From a virus: a stretch of 64,000 nucleotides of DNA. Below, piece after piece: positions 39,363 through 48,546 of the stretch. The first letter of the stretch is position 1. Every line of letters begins with the position of its first letter. Made by a program: the position numbers and the translations under genes. The stretch is taken from the IMG/VR virus record IMGVR_UViG_3300029258_002996; one strand, given 5' to 3'. The notes beneath the pieces are model-generated. The model saw only the letters and a program-made list of their open reading frames with translations. It did not search any database and was not told the origin of the DNA.

Positions 39363-39784
39363 AACCCGTCCCTCAGAAATTCTTCTATCTCGGACTCGCG
39401 CTTGTCCTTCTCGGAGACGCTCCCTAGCTCGACCACGCGACCCTTGAGTAGGGGGTAACCCCGTTGACCAACTCCCGAGACCTTGATGGTCTGGACGGAT
39501 GCCGAAGAGTCGACGTAGTAAAGAGCCTCGAACGTGCGGGATTCGTCCGGACCGACCCCAAGAAGCATCGTCTTGGCCGAAAACCGGATAGTGTCTTGAT
39601 CAGCCAGTTCCCCGGACCACAGATACCACAAAAAACCCTTCGTGGCTTCAGCCCGAGAAGTCAGGTACTTGCCATTTCCATCGTTCCAAGAACATTCGAT
39701 ATCATTCACCCAGGCACGGACGCTCTGACCTTCGCGTCTGCGACCAAAAGTCTTGATGTATCCGATCTGGATGATAACTTTCAT
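39359..39784 (-). CDS. Hypothetical protein
   Basis: 141-aa ORF with overlapped junctions. Confidence 0.7.
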   Translation of the reverse strand: MKVIIQIGYIKTFGRRREGQSVRAWVNDIECSWNDGNGKYLTSRAEATKGFLWYLWSGELADQDTIRFSAKTMLLGVGPDESRTFEALYYVDSSASVQTIKVSGVGQRGYPLLKGRVVELGSVSEKDKRESEIEEFLRDGF

Positions 39785-40743
39785 TCAGACGCCGTTTCGA
39801 TGGCGTGAGAGTAGTCGTCAAAGACCTTCCCAGGCTCCGCAGTCGGGGGCAGGCTCGCCTTCATCCAGCGAACCACGAGGTCCACGATGGACTTGGCCAT
39901 AGGAACCACCTGGTTTCCCGAAAATCCGGCTGGATCGAAATCTTGATACGAGAACTTTTCGTAGATGTGCGCCGGTTCCACTCCGTAGCGGAGTAGCATC
40001 GAAACCGCGATGGCCCAGCAATCGGCCAAGCCCGCCACGGTCGAACCCTCTTTGCCTACGTCGATAAACACCTCTCCAGGCGTTCCGTCCGAGAAGCAAC
40101 TCACCGTAAAGTAGCCTTCCGTATCCCCGAGCTTGAACTTCACGGTGCGACTAGGGCGCTCAGCGTCCAAAGAAAACCATCGGGGAGGGGGGCAACTCCT
40201 CGGAGAAGGTTTCCTGTAATAAATCCTATCTTCGAGCAGGAACTTAGGAGGATCGAACCTCTCAGGCTCAATAAGATCGCCCCCCTTCCCTGCAAAATGA
40301 GAGTCAATCTGCCGATCAATCTTGGACCAATCGTACCACTCCAGAATTTTATCGATCTCTTTTTTAACGATTTGCAGAGGAGCGATATCACCGTTCGAAC
40401 CACCCCTCAAAAACTCGATCAAATTGAAGATGGCGTTACGCTCTTGGATTTCAAGATCCTGTGATTCGAGAAACGCCATCACGTCAAGAGAACCCTCCGG
40501 GAGCGACGGTGTCCAGTGACCGGCTCGCATTCGAGCTTCCAGAACCCCCAAGTACCACTTGGCCTTGGCTACATCCTCGCGACCCCCCTTCTTCCGATGG
40601 CGACAGAGATACTTAACGATAGACCCCTCCGCAAATCCCAGACCCCACAACTCGATGAAGTCGATAGGCTGATAGATCCCGGAATAATGTCCCTTTTCAT
40701 TCCCCGGAGAGTTTCTGTCGATTTTCAAAACGTTTTTAGGCAT
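39781..40743 (-). CDS. DUF3310 domain fused to a class II ribonucleotide reductase C-terminal (TSCPD/NrdJb-like) domain
   Basis: HY..IDFI..KYLCR..KGG.EDVAKAKWYL; then GYFTV..DGTPGEVFI..GKEGST..SMLLRYGV..FDPAG..AKSIVD. Confidence 0.8.
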   Translation of the reverse strand: MPKNVLKIDRNSPGNEKGHYSGIYQPIDFIELWGLGFAEGSIVKYLCRHRKKGGREDVAKAKWYLGVLEARMRAGHWTPSLPEGSLDVMAFLESQDLEIQERNAIFNLIEFLRGGSNGDIAPLQIVKKEIDKILEWYDWSKIDRQIDSHFAGKGGDLIEPERFDPPKFLLEDRIYYRKPSPRSCPPPRWFSLDAERPSRTVKFKLGDTEGYFTVSCFSDGTPGEVFIDVGKEGSTVAGLADCWAIAVSMLLRYGVEPAHIYEKFSYQDFDPAGFSGNQVVPMAKSIVDLVVRWMKASLPPTAEPGKVFDDYSHAIETASE

Positions 40744-42310
40744 CTTCCGTCACCTTGTCCAAGAGGTTTTTCACCATTTTTTCGGCATACTGCATATTCT
40801 TCTCGTCCTGCTGATTGCGAAACGTTGAAGACGGATGAACGCAAACCGCCACTTTCGCCTCGATTTGCCCGATCATACCAGTCGGGCTCTCCAGTATTTC
40901 CCCGCAGTGCTTGCGCACACGGCTTCGATACGGCGTAAGCTGCATCATAGCCTCGTTCCCGAACGCAATAATAAACTTGGGGCGCAAAAGATCGATTTCG
41001 GCTCGTAAGTACCTGGAGCACGCCTTGATCTCTCCGAAAGTCGGCGGTCGGTTGTCCTGTGAGTAGCATTTGCAAGTGTTCGTGACCCAGCACTCGTCGC
41101 GAATGAGCCCGACGTTCGCCAAGAACTTTTCGAGACGACTCCCCGCAGGAGCCCCCGGAAAAAACGGTTTCCGATTTATCAACTCCTGCTCACCCGGGTT
41201 CCGACCGACGATCATGATCTCGCAGTTTTCGTGCCCCGAGGGAAGCGTGGGGCCGAATTCGGCACAATGCGACCTCAGCTCGCATTGGGCACACTCCAGC
41301 ATTGCATTATCGACTTCCAGCAGAGAGCCCCAGGAGGGCCTCTCAGACGGCGCGCAGTTCTCCATGTAGTTCACCATACCCTTCAGGTCGGCGGAGGACG
41401 TAGGGAGCAGCCTCTCTTGCTCAGCGTAGGATTTGCCGAACCGCTCGTACATCATCCGCACCCGGAAATCTTCCCGAGCGAGCGGCTTCTCGACCTCTTC
41501 CTTGAAAATGAGCATCTCGGCAGGGGAAAGGTAATAAATCGCCTCCCGCAGGGAGGGGATTTTCACAAGCCGATAGGTCTCGGCGATAAGTTCACCACTT
41601 TCCAGGATCCGAGCCGTGGTCTTGCGTTTCGACAGCTCTTTGATTTGATCCTTGTCAGGGAAGCACAAGGTACCGAGGTGCTCGTACTGCGCCAAGAGCT
41701 TTGCACCGGTCTTCGCCCCAATTCCCTTGACTCCAGGGATGTTGTCCGAAGCGTCACCCATCAACGACTTGAGATCGGCTACGCGCTCGGGCTCCACGCC
41801 AAAGGCGCTCTCGACGCCCTGCTCGTTGAACAAGGTGGAATGTAGATGATCGTAAACCAGGACCCGGGAGCTGACGAGCTGCCACAGGTCGCGGTCGCCG
41901 GTCGCAATCACTATCCGAGGATTTTGCCTGTTGTACAGGAGTGAGTAGTACTCGGAAAGCCACCCGAGCACGTCATCGGCCTCGACACCCGGAATAGTGA
42001 TCTGGCGAACCCCTACGGCGTTGAAGTAACGGCGGACGTAGCCCATCTGCTCTTTCACGAGCGCCAAGTCGACATCCTCGCGCTTCTTCTCCAGTCGGTC
42101 GGCCTTGTAGTCGGGGTAGATCAGCGAACGCCAGCGGGACTTTCCCCTGTCCCAGCAGATGACAACCTCTTGAGGACGGAAACGCTCCAGGATCTCGTAG
42201 AAGTAACGCACCACCTCCCCGGCGATACGGGATTCCTGGCTACTCTTGCGTTCGGCATAGGCCGCTCGCCAGACAAGAGGGTTTCCGTCTACCAGTAGAA
42301 CACACGGCAT
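40736..42310 (-). CDS. 5'-3' exonuclease/flap endonuclease fused to a family-4-like uracil-DNA glycosylase domain
   Basis: VDGN, YKADR, EADD, GDRD, GDASDNIPGVKGIG; then CxxC, IVGRNPG, PF, TNTCKC, C, HPS. Confidence 0.9.
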   Translation of the reverse strand: MPCVLLVDGNPLVWRAAYAERKSSQESRIAGEVVRYFYEILERFRPQEVVICWDRGKSRWRSLIYPDYKADRLEKKREDVDLALVKEQMGYVRRYFNAVGVRQITIPGVEADDVLGWLSEYYSLLYNRQNPRIVIATGDRDLWQLVSSRVLVYDHLHSTLFNEQGVESAFGVEPERVADLKSLMGDASDNIPGVKGIGAKTGAKLLAQYEHLGTLCFPDKDQIKELSKRKTTARILESGELIAETYRLVKIPSLREAIYYLSPAEMLIFKEEVEKPLAREDFRVRMMYERFGKSYAEQERLLPTSSADLKGMVNYMENCAPSERPSWGSLLEVDNAMLECAQCELRSHCAEFGPTLPSGHENCEIMIVGRNPGEQELINRKPFFPGAPAGSRLEKFLANVGLIRDECWVTNTCKCYSQDNRPPTFGEIKACSRYLRAEIDLLRPKFIIAFGNEAMMQLTPYRSRVRKHCGEILESPTGMIGQIEAKVAVCVHPSSTFRNQQDEKNMQYAEKMVKNLLDKVTEDA

Positions 42311-42739: not shown

Positions 42740-43141
42740 CTACTTCTTCGTCTTCTTGACCCCGTACTTGGAGCGTCCCTGGTTGCGCGGCATGATCTTA
42801 TCCTTCTCCTGTCGGACCCCCTCGCAGTCGGTGCGCCGCGCCCCCCGGATGACGTGGTACCGGACGCCCGGAAGATCCTTCACACGGCCCCCACGGATCA
42901 GGACGACGGAGTGTTCCTGAAGATTGTGATCGATGCCGGGTATGTAGCAAACCACCTCCTTACCGTTGGTCAACTTCACCCGGCAGCATTTACGATTAGC
43001 CGAGTTCGGCTTCTTCGGCGTCACCACGTAAACCCGAGTGCAAACACCTCGCTTCTGCGGGCAATTTCCCAACGCAGGGGACTTGCTCTTTTGGATCTTC
43101 TTCCTACGCCCGTGTTTCACGAGCTGCTGAATCGTCGGCAT
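42740..43141 (-). CDS. rpsL: Phage-encoded 30S ribosomal protein uS12, divergent
   Basis: [40 protein letters not shown]; AAGGAG RBS; no rpsG/fusA downstream. Confidence 0.97.
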
Positions 43142-43376
43142 CATGTCTCCTTCTTGCGGACTTCTCTCGTTCTCGCCGCTTGCTTATTGCGTATTTGGTT
43201 GCGCGTCGGAAGCTTGCCAGCTCCACCTTACAGAGATCCAGCGCATTGTAGATCTTAGCGTTGTGTACGCCCGCGTCGACCATCTCGGCAGTAGCGGCGT
43301 CCAAGAGCGCCTGGACACGTTTCGTCGCTTCCAATCGCCGCTCTGCATCCTCCCCGCCCCACTTGTACTTACTCAT
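43104..43376 (-). CDS. Hypothetical protein
   Basis: 90-aa ORF overlapping the rpsL start. Confidence 0.55.
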
Positions 43377-43419: not shown

Positions 43420-44505
43420 CTAAATGGGATCGACCCTCAGTGCGAAAGTGTCGTCGTTCTGAACGATCTCCTCGACTTCGCGAATGAACTCGTCAGGAAC
43501 GAGCTTCTTCGCTTTGGCCTCTTCCCACTTCTCGACATCGAGGGTGAAGCGCAGACAGTTCGAGGCCCAATCCTCAGCCGAGTTGGTAAGGAACTCCTCG
43601 ATCTTCTGAGTATCGCGCTTGATCGCAGGCTGCCCGGGGGTACGGATCAAGTGAGCCTTGTAACCGAACTCCTGAACGACGAAATCGCCTTTCTCGGGCT
43701 CGGACTCGGTACCATACTCGCGCACAAAACTCTCGATGGATCCGCGCTCCTCGCTGCTGACTTGTTTGAACTCTTTCTCGGCGGCGGACTTGGCCTTTTT
43801 CGCCTCTCCAAACCGCTTGATGCTCGGTTCGTAGCTCCTCAGAGCCGCCTCTTTCTTCTTCGCGCGTTCGGCTTCCTTGCGCTTGCTCTCCTCTTCTGCG
43901 GGATCCGTCTGGGGAGCCGCAGGAGGAATCACCGGAGGAGGCGGTGCAATCTGAGGGACCATTCCAGGCACCTCCAGAACACGCAAGCTGCCCTGGAGCA
44001 CGGCCTTTTCCGGAACCGCCCAGATAGCGCTGCCGCCGCGAACAGCGCAGAGCAGGGAAACGGAGCCATCCCCGGTCACTGAACGCTGTACCACCTTGGC
44101 CGGGGGGAGATTGTCGGCGGTCTGAGGACTCCAGTTTCCGGTCGCAGGATCCCTCCAGTAGAGGGTTCCAGTCAGCTCGATGATCGAGCCTTCCGGAATC
44201 TCCGTCAACTTCGGGGGAACCTCGACAGGAGCCGGAGTGATGGGCGGCAGCCCCTCTGCAACCGGAGGAACCGGACTATCTTCCGAAAGATTCTTCGCAG
44301 ACGATTCGGGCTGCTCACGTTCCGGCTTTTCCGGAGGGGAAATCTCCGGAGGAGCGGCTTCGGAAGAAGAACCTTCAGGGGAGGCAGAGTCATTCACCTC
44401 CTCCGAAAGCTCGATCCCCTCTTTGTGGACCTTCCCCATGTGAACCTTGAGACCGGCCACTGACTTGAAAGGTTTCTTGCAGATACTACAAACTTGGGTA
44501 GACAT
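43420..44505 (-). CDS. C2H2 zinc-finger protein with Pro-rich linker and C-terminal coiled coil (Gam/gp157-like architecture)
   Basis: CSICKKPFKSVAGLKVHMGKVH after AAGGAG RBS; charged helical C-terminus. Confidence 0.65.
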   Translation of the reverse strand: MSTQVCSICKKPFKSVAGLKVHMGKVHKEGIELSEEVNDSASPEGSSSEAAPPEISPPEKPEREQPESSAKNLSEDSPVPPVAEGLPPITPAPVEVPPKLTEIPEGSIIELTGTLYWRDPATGNWSPQTADNLPPAKVVQRSVTGDGSVSLLCAVRGGSAIWAVPEKAVLQGSLRVLEVPGMVPQIAPPPPVIPPAAPQTDPAEEESKRKEAERAKKKEAALRSYEPSIKRFGEAKKAKSAAEKEFKQVSSEERGSIESFVREYGTESEPEKGDFVVQEFGYKAHLIRTPGQPAIKRDTQKIEEFLTNSAEDWASNCLRFTLDVEKWEEAKAKKLVPDEFIREVEEIVQNDDTFALRVDPI

Positions 44506-44659
44506 GTTTCTTCTCTCCTTCTGCCCTACGATCCAGTCGAGAGCTTTTTCCGCGAAGTGCGAGACCACATCATCTACCATACCAAAACCCTCCTGTAAAC
44601 TTAGGATGGCAGTTTGTTCATACTACAGAGAGGGGAATCTCTTCCCCCAGAAACCCATA

Positions 44660-45360: not shown

Positions 45361-46290
45361 TCACTCCCCATGATATCGAGACTCCTTGTACTCCTCCCAA
45401 CTCATGCTCTTAAGGGCTGGCTTGAAATTCACCCATCGTGCGAAGTGGGCTTGGAGTTTCGTGGGCGGAGTTCCTTCTCGATCTATGTAGGGCTGCGCAT
45501 GAGGGTCCACGTAGAGCGTCTTCAGAACCTTCAGCCGCTCTAACGCCTCCTCGATGTCCTTCACCAACATGTAGCAACAATATCTGGCCGGAGTTACGTT
45601 ATTCCATCTCAGATTCGCCACTGCCTTCACCGCGTACTTGATCTGACTCTGGCTATCGCACGCGATCCGGAGAGGTTCGAGCCATTTCACCTTCGCCAAC
45701 AACCGCGCCATCGAATCGTCGATAAAGCGAGCGTCAAGACCCTGGTTGAAGTCCACTTTGACACCGAGCTTCGCGATTTTTTCTATCTGGGCGATGCCGT
45801 GATCGCTGGCGAGGATGTTGTTGTCCATAATGATAACGGAATCGTGCCGCAGGAACTCCTCGATGTCCGCGTGCGCTCGAAGCTTCCCCTCCTTCTCCGG
45901 TACGAAACAGAAACTGCACTTGCGGTCGCAACCTCTCGTGAGAAAACCGAACGAACTCTTGGTTTTGTATAAGTCGTAATCCGGGCAGATATGCTCAATC
46001 TCGTCGGGAAGCCATTCCGTGTAGCCGTAGCCGAATCCTCCACAACGAGCTGTAGGGGGAAGGTCCGGGTCCGCCTCGGAATACGTAAAAACCCGACTGG
46101 AATAGATTAGGTCGAACGGCCCCGGATCCGCCGGAATGAACCCTTCAATACCTTTGAACCACCCGACCGAGTCCCCGCGAGCTTTGTGCCACGCAGAGAG
46201 CTTCATCAACGCCAGATTGGGGAATACGTCTCTCTTCCTTTTTTTAGAAATAGGGGTTGGCTTATCAGGTGTGTGTAGTCCGACTCGCAT
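45361..46290 (-). CDS. Radical SAM protein
   Basis: TRGCDRKCSFC (CxxxCxxC); FPNLALMKLS N-terminus; DNN, FNQGLDAR. Confidence 0.9.
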   Translation of the reverse strand: MRVGLHTPDKPTPISKKRKRDVFPNLALMKLSAWHKARGDSVGWFKGIEGFIPADPGPFDLIYSSRVFTYSEADPDLPPTARCGGFGYGYTEWLPDEIEHICPDYDLYKTKSSFGFLTRGCDRKCSFCFVPEKEGKLRAHADIEEFLRHDSVIIMDNNILASDHGIAQIEKIAKLGVKVDFNQGLDARFIDDSMARLLAKVKWLEPLRIACDSQSQIKYAVKAVANLRWNNVTPARYCCYMLVKDIEEALERLKVLKTLYVDPHAQPYIDREGTPPTKLQAHFARWVNFKPALKSMSWEEYKESRYHGE

Positions 46291-46441: not shown

Positions 46442-47461
46442 TCACTTCGATTTCAGACCGATTTCTCCTTTTTTCAAAGCCTTGCGACGCAGTTCCACGC
46501 GCCTGTTTCTCGCCTCCTTCATTAGGCGCTTTTCCCTTTTGTACTGTCTCTGCAACTCCCTTATTTGACCCTCTTCCGCTTCATAATGATCTCTAGAGTA
46601 AGATAGGAGATTCACCTTATTGTGCTCCTTGCTATAGTTGTTGTAGATCTTATTCAATAGCTTGAGATAATAATCTCCATCAGGCTGCTTGACCATCAAG
46701 TGGTGGTGAGTGCTTACCTTCTCAAGAAACCGAGAAGGACGAAACTTGGGATTCCGCGCCAGTGCGACAAGTGCGCGCACAAACTCAATCCCGGTAGCGA
46801 ATTTAGCATTTTTTGGATGCTTCACCGCCAGCACGGCGGCGCTCTTACAGGCGTAAAGCAACTCCCCAACCTGATTTGCGAACGCCTCATCCGTCACCAC
46901 GAACTCCTCCTTGCGCACTGTGTCGTTAACCATCCCCCCGACACCGCCAAGTAGGTACGAGGCTACCTTGAAGCCACACCCGTGCTTAGCAACAAACGCC
47001 TCAAGCTTGTGATAGTCCTCACTGCCGCCTCTCTCATACGCTCCTGAGAAGCCCGGAGCGCTCCATGCCTTGGAGGTGGCCTCTTCGTGGTAAGTGCTCA
47101 CCTCGGTATTGTCAATCACAAACCAGATGGGGAGTGCCATCTCTCGGGCAATACAGAATCGGTGATGTCCGGATACGATCTCCAAGCGACCATCCGCGAG
47201 AGCCTTCACCCCTATGGGATGGCGCTTGAGATGCCCATGAAGATCGAAGGACTCTCTTAACAATTCGGCTCGGATCGTCTCTACGCGGTTTTTCTCTCCC
47301 AACAAGAAACGGTCGTAATCCCAAGTCTTGAAAACACCGCCAACTTCCTCAATCCACGGCTCCTCCCCCGCTAGCCCGGCACTCTCGATTTGCCGTGCCA
47401 TAAGGTCGGACACTTCTGCCCTTGCGTCGCTTCTCTCCTTTGGATTTCCCATCTTCTTCAC
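46442..47461 (-). CDS. ParB/Srx N-terminal-domain protein
   Basis: HPIGV..LEIVSGHHRF. Confidence 0.7.
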   Translation of the reverse strand: MKKMGNPKERSDARAEVSDLMARQIESAGLAGEEPWIEEVGGVFKTWDYDRFLLGEKNRVETIRAELLRESFDLHGHLKRHPIGVKALADGRLEIVSGHHRFCIAREMALPIWFVIDNTEVSTYHEEATSKAWSAPGFSGAYERGGSEDYHKLEAFVAKHGCGFKVASYLLGGVGGMVNDTVRKEEFVVTDEAFANQVGELLYACKSAAVLAVKHPKNAKFATGIEFVRALVALARNPKFRPSRFLEKVSTHHHLMVKQPDGDYYLKLLNKIYNNYSKEHNKVNLLSYSRDHYEAEEGQIRELQRQYKREKRLMKEARNRRVELRRKALKKGEIGLKSK

Positions 47462-48546
47462 TCCCTTTCGTTTGATTCTTCATTGCAAACTTCCCCCACC
47501 GAATCTTCTTCAGTTTCAGAAGAGTCGATGAAAAAATCATCCACTTTGTACCAAAATGGAATTCCCAGCTTCTTCGCCACATCAAACAGATGTTTTCCAT
47601 CCACAACTTCGTATTTTCCGTCTTCCCGAGATTTCACGATTACCGGCTTCGACTTATCGAATCCGGACGCTTCCATAAAGTTCTGCAACATGCGTTTTTT
47701 TCCTTTGACTTCTTTATACGGAGGCACTATAAAATCTTCGAAATTAGAAGACTCCTTCGCTAAGATGATCTTTTTCTTCTCTTCGTTTTCGTCCAACCAT
47801 TTTCGAAGAAGAGCCCACGCAGCTTTACGTTCCGGATCGCCATTCTCAATCCGGGACATCGAATCAATCGCGCGTCGTGCCCAACCAAGTCCTCTAAGAG
47901 GTGCAGTACATTGTTTCATCGACTGTTCTCTTTTCTTCTTCCTGCGTTTGGACGCAGCAATATACCCAGGTGACTTTCTCTTTGAAATTTGATCTTGTAG
48001 TATTGGATCCGGATCTACTTTATCGCGCACGCGAACACCGCAATGCTCCGCATACATGGGACCTTTTCCGTAAAATTTCCCCAAGCGAGCCCTAATCTGT
48101 TCGGTAACCGTCCCGTTGTTCCTGACTACTTTTTCAGGAAAACCCCGCTCAATAATGGCGCTCACGTATTTCTTGGAAATCCCGGGATTTTTCGCGTTGA
48201 GCAAGTTATGACGACGACCTACCGCCACTTTGAACGCATCTTTGTCGAGAGTCTCTGTAATTTTCCCATTCGCTAGCTGAGCCGCCATGACATAGTCCTG
48301 AGCGTCGTCGAAGGTGATGATGTAGTCAGGGGCCATCACGATCTTAGGCTCAATTCCCAGCTCTTGACAGATCCGATAACGTTCGTGTCCTTCAAGAATT
48401 ATAAGATCGTCACTGTCCTTATCCGCTTTCCATACGACGAGAGGTTCTTTCAGCCCCTCTTTTTGAATACTCTCTTTCAGCTTCCGATAGGCGGAAGCCC
48501 TCAGAGGGGGAAGCGGCTTTTTCAATAGCGGGTCTATCTTAATCAT
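47458..48546 (-). CDS. Protein with two ParB/Srx-like domains
   Basis: LKESIQKEGLKEPLVVW..LEGHERY and KPVIV..YEVVDGKH. Confidence 0.75.
   Translation of the reverse strand: MIKIDPLLKKPLPPLRASAYRKLKESIQKEGLKEPLVVWKADKDSDDLIILEGHERYRICQELGIEPKIVMAPDYIITFDDAQDYVMAAQLANGKITETLDKDAFKVAVGRRHNLLNAKNPGISKKYVSAIIERGFPEKVVRNNGTVTEQIRARLGKFYGKGPMYAEHCGVRVRDKVDPDPILQDQISKRKSPGYIAASKRRKKKREQSMKQCTAPLRGLGWARRAIDSMSRIENGDPERKAAWALLRKWLDENEEKKKIILAKESSNFEDFIVPPYKEVKGKKRMLQNFMEASGFDKSKPVIVKSREDGKYEVVDGKHLFDVAKKLGIPFWYKVDDFFIDSSETEEDSVGEVCNEESNERE

Follow-up and report, generated by a model that had tools for sequence, protein, structure and literature searches.

A phage-encoded ribosomal protein uS12 with a changed decoding-loop base and a linked upstream gene

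What use could a phage make of its own copy of a protein from the decoding centre of the ribosome? The question is raised by an rpsL-like gene in the window, the whole stretch of 64,000 nucleotides of the IMG/VR virus record IMGVR_UViG_3300029258_002996 that was analysed here. uS12 is part of the decoding centre, where it governs the trade-off between speed and accuracy in tRNA selection, and to our knowledge it is not among the proteins that exchange readily on mature ribosomes. The features discussed below are the following.

42740..43141, minus strand: uS12 (rpsL-like) coding sequence, 133 aa plus stop, assigned by PF00164, alignment to solved uS12 and fold match
43147..43151, minus strand: Shine-Dalgarno-like AGGAG, read directly from the sequence, 5 nt before the ATG at 43141
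42995..43027, minus strand: decoding loop 1 and its remodelled base (E. coli positions 38-48), from the translation, the alignment of 31 members and the column comparison with 69 cellular proteins
42788..42841, minus strand: C-terminal loop with the 2-aa and 7-aa insertions, from the translation and the gaps against solved uS12
43104..43376, minus strand: orphan partner (P0124), 90 aa, the ORF directly upstream of S12, overlapping the S12 start by 38 nt

Profile, alignment and fold comparisons confirmed that the ORF is a genuine and intact uS12 gene. The family PF00164 (Ribosom_S12_S23) matched with 121.3 bits against a cut-off of 22.3, with residues 19-116 covering positions 2-107 of the 110 in the profile, and the alignment to solved uS12 of bacteria covered the full length of the protein, at 60-68% identity. 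The AF2 model contained an OB-fold β-barrel core (strands 29-40, 50-57, 62-66, 79-84, and 95-97) with pLDDT of 80-92, and the top 50 Foldseek matches in the PDB were all ribosomal uS12 chains (E~1e-13, TM~0.64). The ORF spans 42740..43144 on the minus strand (134 aa) with an alternative in-frame ATG at 43144, and the start region reads GAAGGAGAC-ATG-ATG-CCG. The second ATG, at 43141, is the likely start since the AGGAG is spaced 5 nt from it and only 2 nt from the first, and since translation from it gives the N-terminus MPTIQQL as in every homologue. The AGGAG sits within the 3' end of the upstream partner ORF, and scans for promoters and terminators around the gene gave no signal above the shuffled background. 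The initial annotation, which had described an intact rpsL with its own ribosome-binding site, was thus right in both the coordinates and the presence of that site.

The genome that holds the gene is that of a bona fide tailed phage. The source record has 127,888 bp and is about 71% complete by CheckV, and its large ORFs are all on one strand. A portal protein (E=9e-65), a head maturation protease (1e-31) and a major head protein (6e-57) are encoded on the same contig and strand, and the window contains genes for a family-A DNA polymerase, a DnaB-like helicase, an SbcC-like protein, an SNF2 helicase, ParB-like proteins and a baseplate wedge protein, while the Terminase_6N and Phage_sheath_1 profiles found no match in the 127,888-bp record at its completeness of about 71%. 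The flanks of rpsL consist of hypotheticals and phage replication genes, in agreement with the first description of the locus as lying among hypotheticals. The absence of rpsG and fusA, also claimed there, extended to the whole record, as profile searches of the 127,888 bp found no S7, no EF-G/EF-Tu GTPase domain (PF00177, PF00009) and no S4, S5 or S21. An identical uS12 protein with the same neighbours was present on nine other Logan contigs of 50-200 kb, which makes a chimeric join, the first of the artefacts that had been considered, unlikely; near-identity to a host rpsL was not found either, the best cellular matches being about 70% identical. No tRNA was found in the window. No Rfam family reached its gathering score in the window or in the 442-kb contig described below (L275), and none was found near S12 at E<=0.1.

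Several neighbouring genes deserve description in their own right. Downstream of uS12 a 105-aa hypothetical is followed by a single 524-aa ORF (40736-42310, minus strand), in which a 5'-3' exonuclease (N-terminal and SAM-fold domains) is fused to a uracil-DNA glycosylase superfamily domain, and by a 320-aa protein with DUF3310 and TSCPD domains (39781-40743, minus strand); a TSCPD protein also occurs near S12 in an unrelated phage locus (L019), with 39% identity over 129 aa. Directly upstream of the pair formed by the partner and S12 lies a 386-aa ORF (43420-44580, minus strand) with one C2H2-like zinc finger near its N-terminus and a proline/glutamate-rich, low-complexity middle, and two adjacent ParB-like (ParB_N) proteins of 339 and 362 aa are encoded at 46442-48546 (minus strand). 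A 309-aa radical SAM protein (45361-46290, minus strand; CxxxCxxC, phrog_9298 with E=1e-69, weak Pfam Radical_SAM) is encoded 2 kb upstream of S12. In cells, D88 of uS12 is methylthiolated by the radical SAM enzyme RimO, and the phage enzyme was considered as a RimO-like modifier of D88 and rejected, being too short and having no RimO domains; any link of the two would be speculative. Outside the window, the virus record contains a tmRNA at C1:122569-122907 (L149:770-1110; RF00023 with 88.8 bits), for which ARAGORN predicted the tag AEEQLQEAA*.

The phage protein shares with bacterial uS12 (rpsL; PF00164) the fold, the length class, the decoding loops (PKKPNSA), H76, D88 and the N-terminal extension. 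In E. coli mature numbering, L48 is replaced by Asn (PNSANRK), T38 and T39 by two Val residues and G70 by Asp (PGIDH), and two residues are inserted after GAR and seven before RSKYG, while K42, K43, H76, K87, D88 and P90 are kept; each of these substitutions, insertions and retained residues, as listed in the initial annotation, was recovered in the alignment to solved uS12 chains. V38/V39, N48 and the 2-aa and 7-aa insertions in the C-terminal loop thus distinguish it from bacterial rpsL. Among 31 members of the clade described below, P41-A47, H76, R85, D88-G91 and RSKYG were invariant and K87 was kept in 29. The N-terminal extension, which in the ribosome threads through the 30S body, was at least 90% conserved at most positions. 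The base of loop 1 varied. Position 38 is Thr in 66 of 69 cellular S12s and Val, Thr or Ile in the phage clade, where position 39 is Val in 26 of 31 members; position 40 is Thr in 68 of 69 cellular S12s and Lys, Asn, Thr or others in the clade; and position 48, which is Leu, Met or Ile in all 69 cellular S12s, is Asn, Gln, Glu, Val or others in the clade. The hallmark of the clade is therefore the combined change at the base of loop 1 (38-40 and 48) under an invariant loop tip. Lys at position 40 tended to pair with residues other than Asn at position 48, and N48 with residues other than K40 (raw Fisher p=2e-4); the coupling was not significant in a phylogenetically independent-pairs test (median p 0.25) and may be taken as a suggestion only. 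The C-terminal insertion loop varied in length and sequence across the clade and had low pLDDT in the AF2 model. The most divergent S12 of the clade (L015:5001-5396) contains PNSAKR, VWVMT and ERNNLKEH (H71N, Q74K) and still has an intact second decoding loop and RSKYG.

The substitutions listed in the initial annotation are not novelties specific to the phage, since G70D, the loop insertions and N48 all have precedents in cellular or mitochondrial S12. For G70D, a back-translated PGxDHNLQEH was scanned against one genome per species. At least 120 genomes matched; among the matches listed nearly all were Planctomycetota or Poribacteria, 108 of 120 had rpsG in the 8-kb locus, and all full-length ones had PNSALRK. 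The presence of G70D in the chromosomal rpsL of at least 120 species of Planctomycetota and Poribacteria implies that it is a normal cellular state. The motif IPG[I/V/E]DHNLQEH is thus common to rpsL of these phyla and phage uS12, and a 129-aa planctomycete subtype of rpsL has in common with it a loop insertion ending in PRNxxRSKYGVK. Insertions before RSKYG also occur in several other bacteria, including some with ordinary rpsL-rpsG-fusA operons. The rpsL of Planctomycetota and Poribacteria differs from the phage protein in that V[R/K]TQT and PNSALRK are kept and in that it forms a well-supported clade of its own.

N48 is native in mammalian mitochondrial uS12m and is therefore compatible with a working decoding centre. 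In a local stretch, uS12m (PDB 3j9m, 7pnt) is identical to phage uS12 at 25 of 29 residues, including N48, C51-C52 and V-C. With the 31-residue loop segment as query, uS12m ranked first; with the full-length query, the best PDB matches were bacterial, and uS12m was rejected as the closest relative of the whole protein. The resemblance is local and, as judged from these comparisons, probably convergent. A scan of metagenomes for N48-type loops gave at least 120 matches; among those listed, most looked like organelle-type sequences, eight loci had an adjacent rpsG and a few were phage-type. Since all of the changed residues have precedents in cellular or organellar S12, the phage protein could be functionally ordinary.

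An evasion of antibiotics had also been proposed for the phage protein. No substitution was present in phage uS12 at P41, K42, K43, P44, N45, K87, P90 or G91, which were taken as the classical sites of streptomycin phenotypes. With these sites wild type, a role in resistance is not indicated, and the proposal loses its ground at K42, K43, K87, P90 and G91 in particular. Sites of this kind in rpsL are described in PMC3884664.

Among 5.8 billion proteins, the closest relatives of phage uS12 were 67-82% identical to it, with named cellular S12s at about 70%, and about 32 of the best 120 matches contained the variant signature. The phylogeny against bacterial rpsL that had been proposed as a check was calculated by maximum likelihood from 101 rows and 131 columns, and the phage variants formed a separate clade in it. 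This clade was pure and comprised 31 of the 32 variant S12s (UFboot 94 / SH-aLRT 80, just under the star threshold of the tool), with all other bacteria sampled as its sister; the variant-like P0043 fell outside. Genomic context was examined at 11 clade loci (P0002, P0009, P0006, P0027, P0026, P0037, L012/L143, L144, L015, L166 and L275). All 11 were phage-like and without rpsG, and consisted of short same-strand hypotheticals and phage-type genes, including CobT/VWA, HNH, TSCPD and a peptidoglycan-binding protein. The contigs were mostly 95-442 kb where the length was known: 170 kb for P0009 (contigs from two sources), 95.7 kb for L012/L143 and 442 kb for L275, the last with a CheckV completeness of 100%. 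The lineage has so far been found solely in phage-like settings at the 11 loci examined. Its flanks had almost nothing else in common, which suggests that the S12 gene is old in phages or moves between them. Compared with bacterial rpsL, the phage copy is without rpsG, fusA and tuf, belongs to a separate clade and has an orphan partner upstream in place of the str operon.

The phage uS12 is under purifying selection. In a pairwise Nei-Gojobori comparison of nine phage S12 genes, all nine were intact, dN was 0.17-0.44 and pS was 0.5-0.88 with synonymous sites saturated, so that the dN/dS values of about 0.09-0.47 are upper bounds wherever dS is saturated. Intact genes with a dN/dS in this range or lower speak against the relaxed selection or decay that had been raised as an objection to a functional gene. 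As to its origin, the clade was not nested in any phylum in the unconstrained tree, and a constrained tree that joined it to Planctomycetota and Poribacteria was 0.9 log-likelihood units better and was not rejected (p-AU 0.51). Together with the IPGxDH motif and the loop insertion, this makes a PVC-type source of the phage S12 plausible, though unproven.

Genuine members had to be separated from mislabelled ones. The controls with rpsL-rpsG(-fusA) included P0065, L010, L011, L014 and a mislabelled "Acinetobacter phage" record. In INPHARED, all 19 of the tblastn matches were at most 65% identical, and several were bacterial whole-genome or fragment records; H5, the match whose locus was inspected and which also served as a control, was rejected as a phage S12 because of its rpsL-rpsG-fusA locus. 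Several entries filed there as phages, CAKLQF020000022.1 and AFYI01000003.1 among them, are pieces of bacterial chromosomes with, for example, rpsL-rpsG-fusA and fabB. Among the IMG/VR matches, L010, L011 and L014 were rejected for an adjacent rpsG and L013 for its bacterial-type sequence. Most matches to "phage S12" in public phage collections are thus host contamination, from which adjacency to rpsG separates the genuine cases cleanly, and the mislabelled bacterial records would yield false "phage S12" in naive surveys. The rpsG criterion can serve later surveys as a practical standard.

A linked gene upstream of phage uS12 is newly recognised here. Homologues of this partner lie directly upstream of S12 in L003, L006, L019/L147, L144, L166, L275 and the P0123 contig, in nine loci in all or about half of those examined, and the S12 loci L017, L012, L015 and L145 are without it; in L145 its place directly upstream of S12 is taken by a stand-alone response-regulator receiver domain (PF00072; L145:3764-4129). 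A profile search with the partner found only six clusters among 5.8 billion proteins, and the profile was not found in the 401 Planctomycetota genomes searched. The AF2 model (pLDDT 86) is a two-helix hairpin, with helices 8-34 and 40-89 and a basic C-terminus. The protein had no Pfam match better than E=0.05 and no PDB sequence match better than E=0.27, and structural searches gave generic helical hairpins only in Foldseek (E>0.6) and generic helical matches only in the ESM Atlas.

Other translation genes accompany S12 in some of these phages. Arrays of tRNA genes lie in or beside the S12 locus in L019 (22 tRNAs), L017 (6) and L015 (4), and a tmRNA (131.7 bits) lies about 800 nt upstream of S12 in L145. 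In L275 (G011; IMGVR_UViG_3300029288_005873, 441,904 bp, CheckV 100%), S12 and the partner occur together with bS21 (C1:107508-107669, 59 bits). The array of 22 tRNAs is dense and surrounds the S12 cassette on a 40-kb phage contig (L019:4361-9908 / L147:1013-2899), and the S12 gene there has a GTG start and shares 80 nt with the partner ORF.

Virus-encoded ribosomal proteins have been surveyed before. Mizuno et al. 2019 (PMC6375957) ran 106 profiles, PF00164 among them, against 424,225 viral contigs, and uS12 is not one of the 13 proteins that they list; Al-Shayeb et al. 2020 (PMC7162821) listed S4, S1, S21 and L7/L12 and no uS12. The proteins in these two reports are mostly peripheral or exchangeable, such as bS21, bL12, bL31, bL33, bL9, HPF, S1 and others, and our search of the open-access full-text literature found no report of a virus-encoded S12. 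The contrast that the initial annotation drew between uS12 and the commonly reported phage ribosomal proteins is thus borne out by both lists. Phage uS12 resembles the proteins of these reports in being a single phage-fixed gene under purifying selection, with presumed replacement of the host protein, and in that such genes often occur in large phages with other translation genes; it differs from them in its place at the decoding centre and in its conserved partner gene.

From these observations we favour, with a probability of about 0.6, the reading that uS12 of this phage lineage is assembled into host 30S subunits during infection and gives ribosomes that favour the phage. The phage protein would take the place of host uS12 in these subunits. 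It would keep the decoding contacts, namely the loop tips PKKPNSA and GGRVKDLPG and residue H76, and would introduce an altered collar of loop 1 (38-40 and 48) and an altered C-terminal surface loop; the decoding kinetics, accuracy or factor interactions of the resulting ribosomes would then favour the phage. A ribosomal role of the protein is probable from its conserved residues, and we favour incorporation into ribosomes mainly because the N-terminal extension is conserved; beyond this, we infer the incorporation itself, the change in fidelity and the role of the partner. Since uS12 is not known to exchange readily, incorporation would call for 30S subunits newly assembled in the infected cell or for an exchange route of a new kind. 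For such a route the partner would offer a candidate. It might form with the variant uS12 a ribosome-remodelling cassette, in which it would escort or exchange the phage uS12 into host 30S and so retune the decoding centre, an extension of the favoured reading that we regard as doubtful; if it were true, this would be the first virus to rewrite a core, non-exchangeable part of the ribosome.

The phage copy might instead serve supply and not tuning. As the functional equal of host uS12 it would sustain 30S biogenesis or repair under host shut-off, over the long course that infections by large phages of slow-growing hosts typically take. The residues needed for decoding and for binding to rRNA are all conserved, every substitution typical of the clade is also seen in ordinary cellular or mitochondrial S12, and these phages also carry tRNAs, tmRNA or bS21, as such a reading would lead one to expect. 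However, one ribosomal protein alone cannot sustain ribosome production, and one would not expect a simple spare part to have a conserved orphan partner. The clade also departs systematically from T40, present in 68 of 69 cellular S12s, and from L/M/I48, present in 69 of 69, which indicates a changed constraint rather than simple equivalence. Taken together, these points make supply an unlikely explanation.

The protein might also be used outside the ribosome. It might act on phage RNAs as a chaperone, it might be a decoy by which a host factor or a defence system that recognises uS12 is titrated, or it might have a regulatory task that it shares with the helical protein encoded upstream. S12 is an RNA chaperone in the splicing of T4 introns, the gene is closely linked to that of an orphan basic helical protein and overlaps it, which suggests a dedicated two-protein function, and the C-terminal loop is as variable as expected of a surface under diversifying pressure. 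But the loop tips that contact the codon-anticodon helix and the N-terminal extension are strictly conserved, and the conservation of features that matter only inside the 30S is hard to explain by a purely off-ribosome role; furthermore, no introns or ribozymes were detected near S12 in the window. We therefore hold an extraribosomal use to be quite improbable. A functionless passenger or an artefact, whether a recently captured host rpsL, an assembly chimera or a non-viral contig, drew its credit from the bacterial contamination with adjacent rpsG found among S12 matches in "phage" records and several IMG/VR matches. Against it stand the same gene order in nine independent contigs, the capsid, portal and protease genes on the contig, an identity of about 70% or less to any cellular S12, and the spread of the clade under purifying selection across phage loci with almost nothing else in common, so that this explanation is hardly credible for the present gene.

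Incorporation of the phage-lineage uS12 into host ribosomes would bear on how far phages reach into translation. From a conserved uS12 lineage found only in phage-like settings it follows that the changes made by some large phages may reach the core of the host ribosome and not just initiation or the stalk, and the recurring partner gene adds to the case for such an alteration. The natural variants at positions 38-40 and 48 are useful for studying the effect of the S12 loop collar on fidelity, and phage uS12 provides a testable handle on virus-made "specialised ribosomes".
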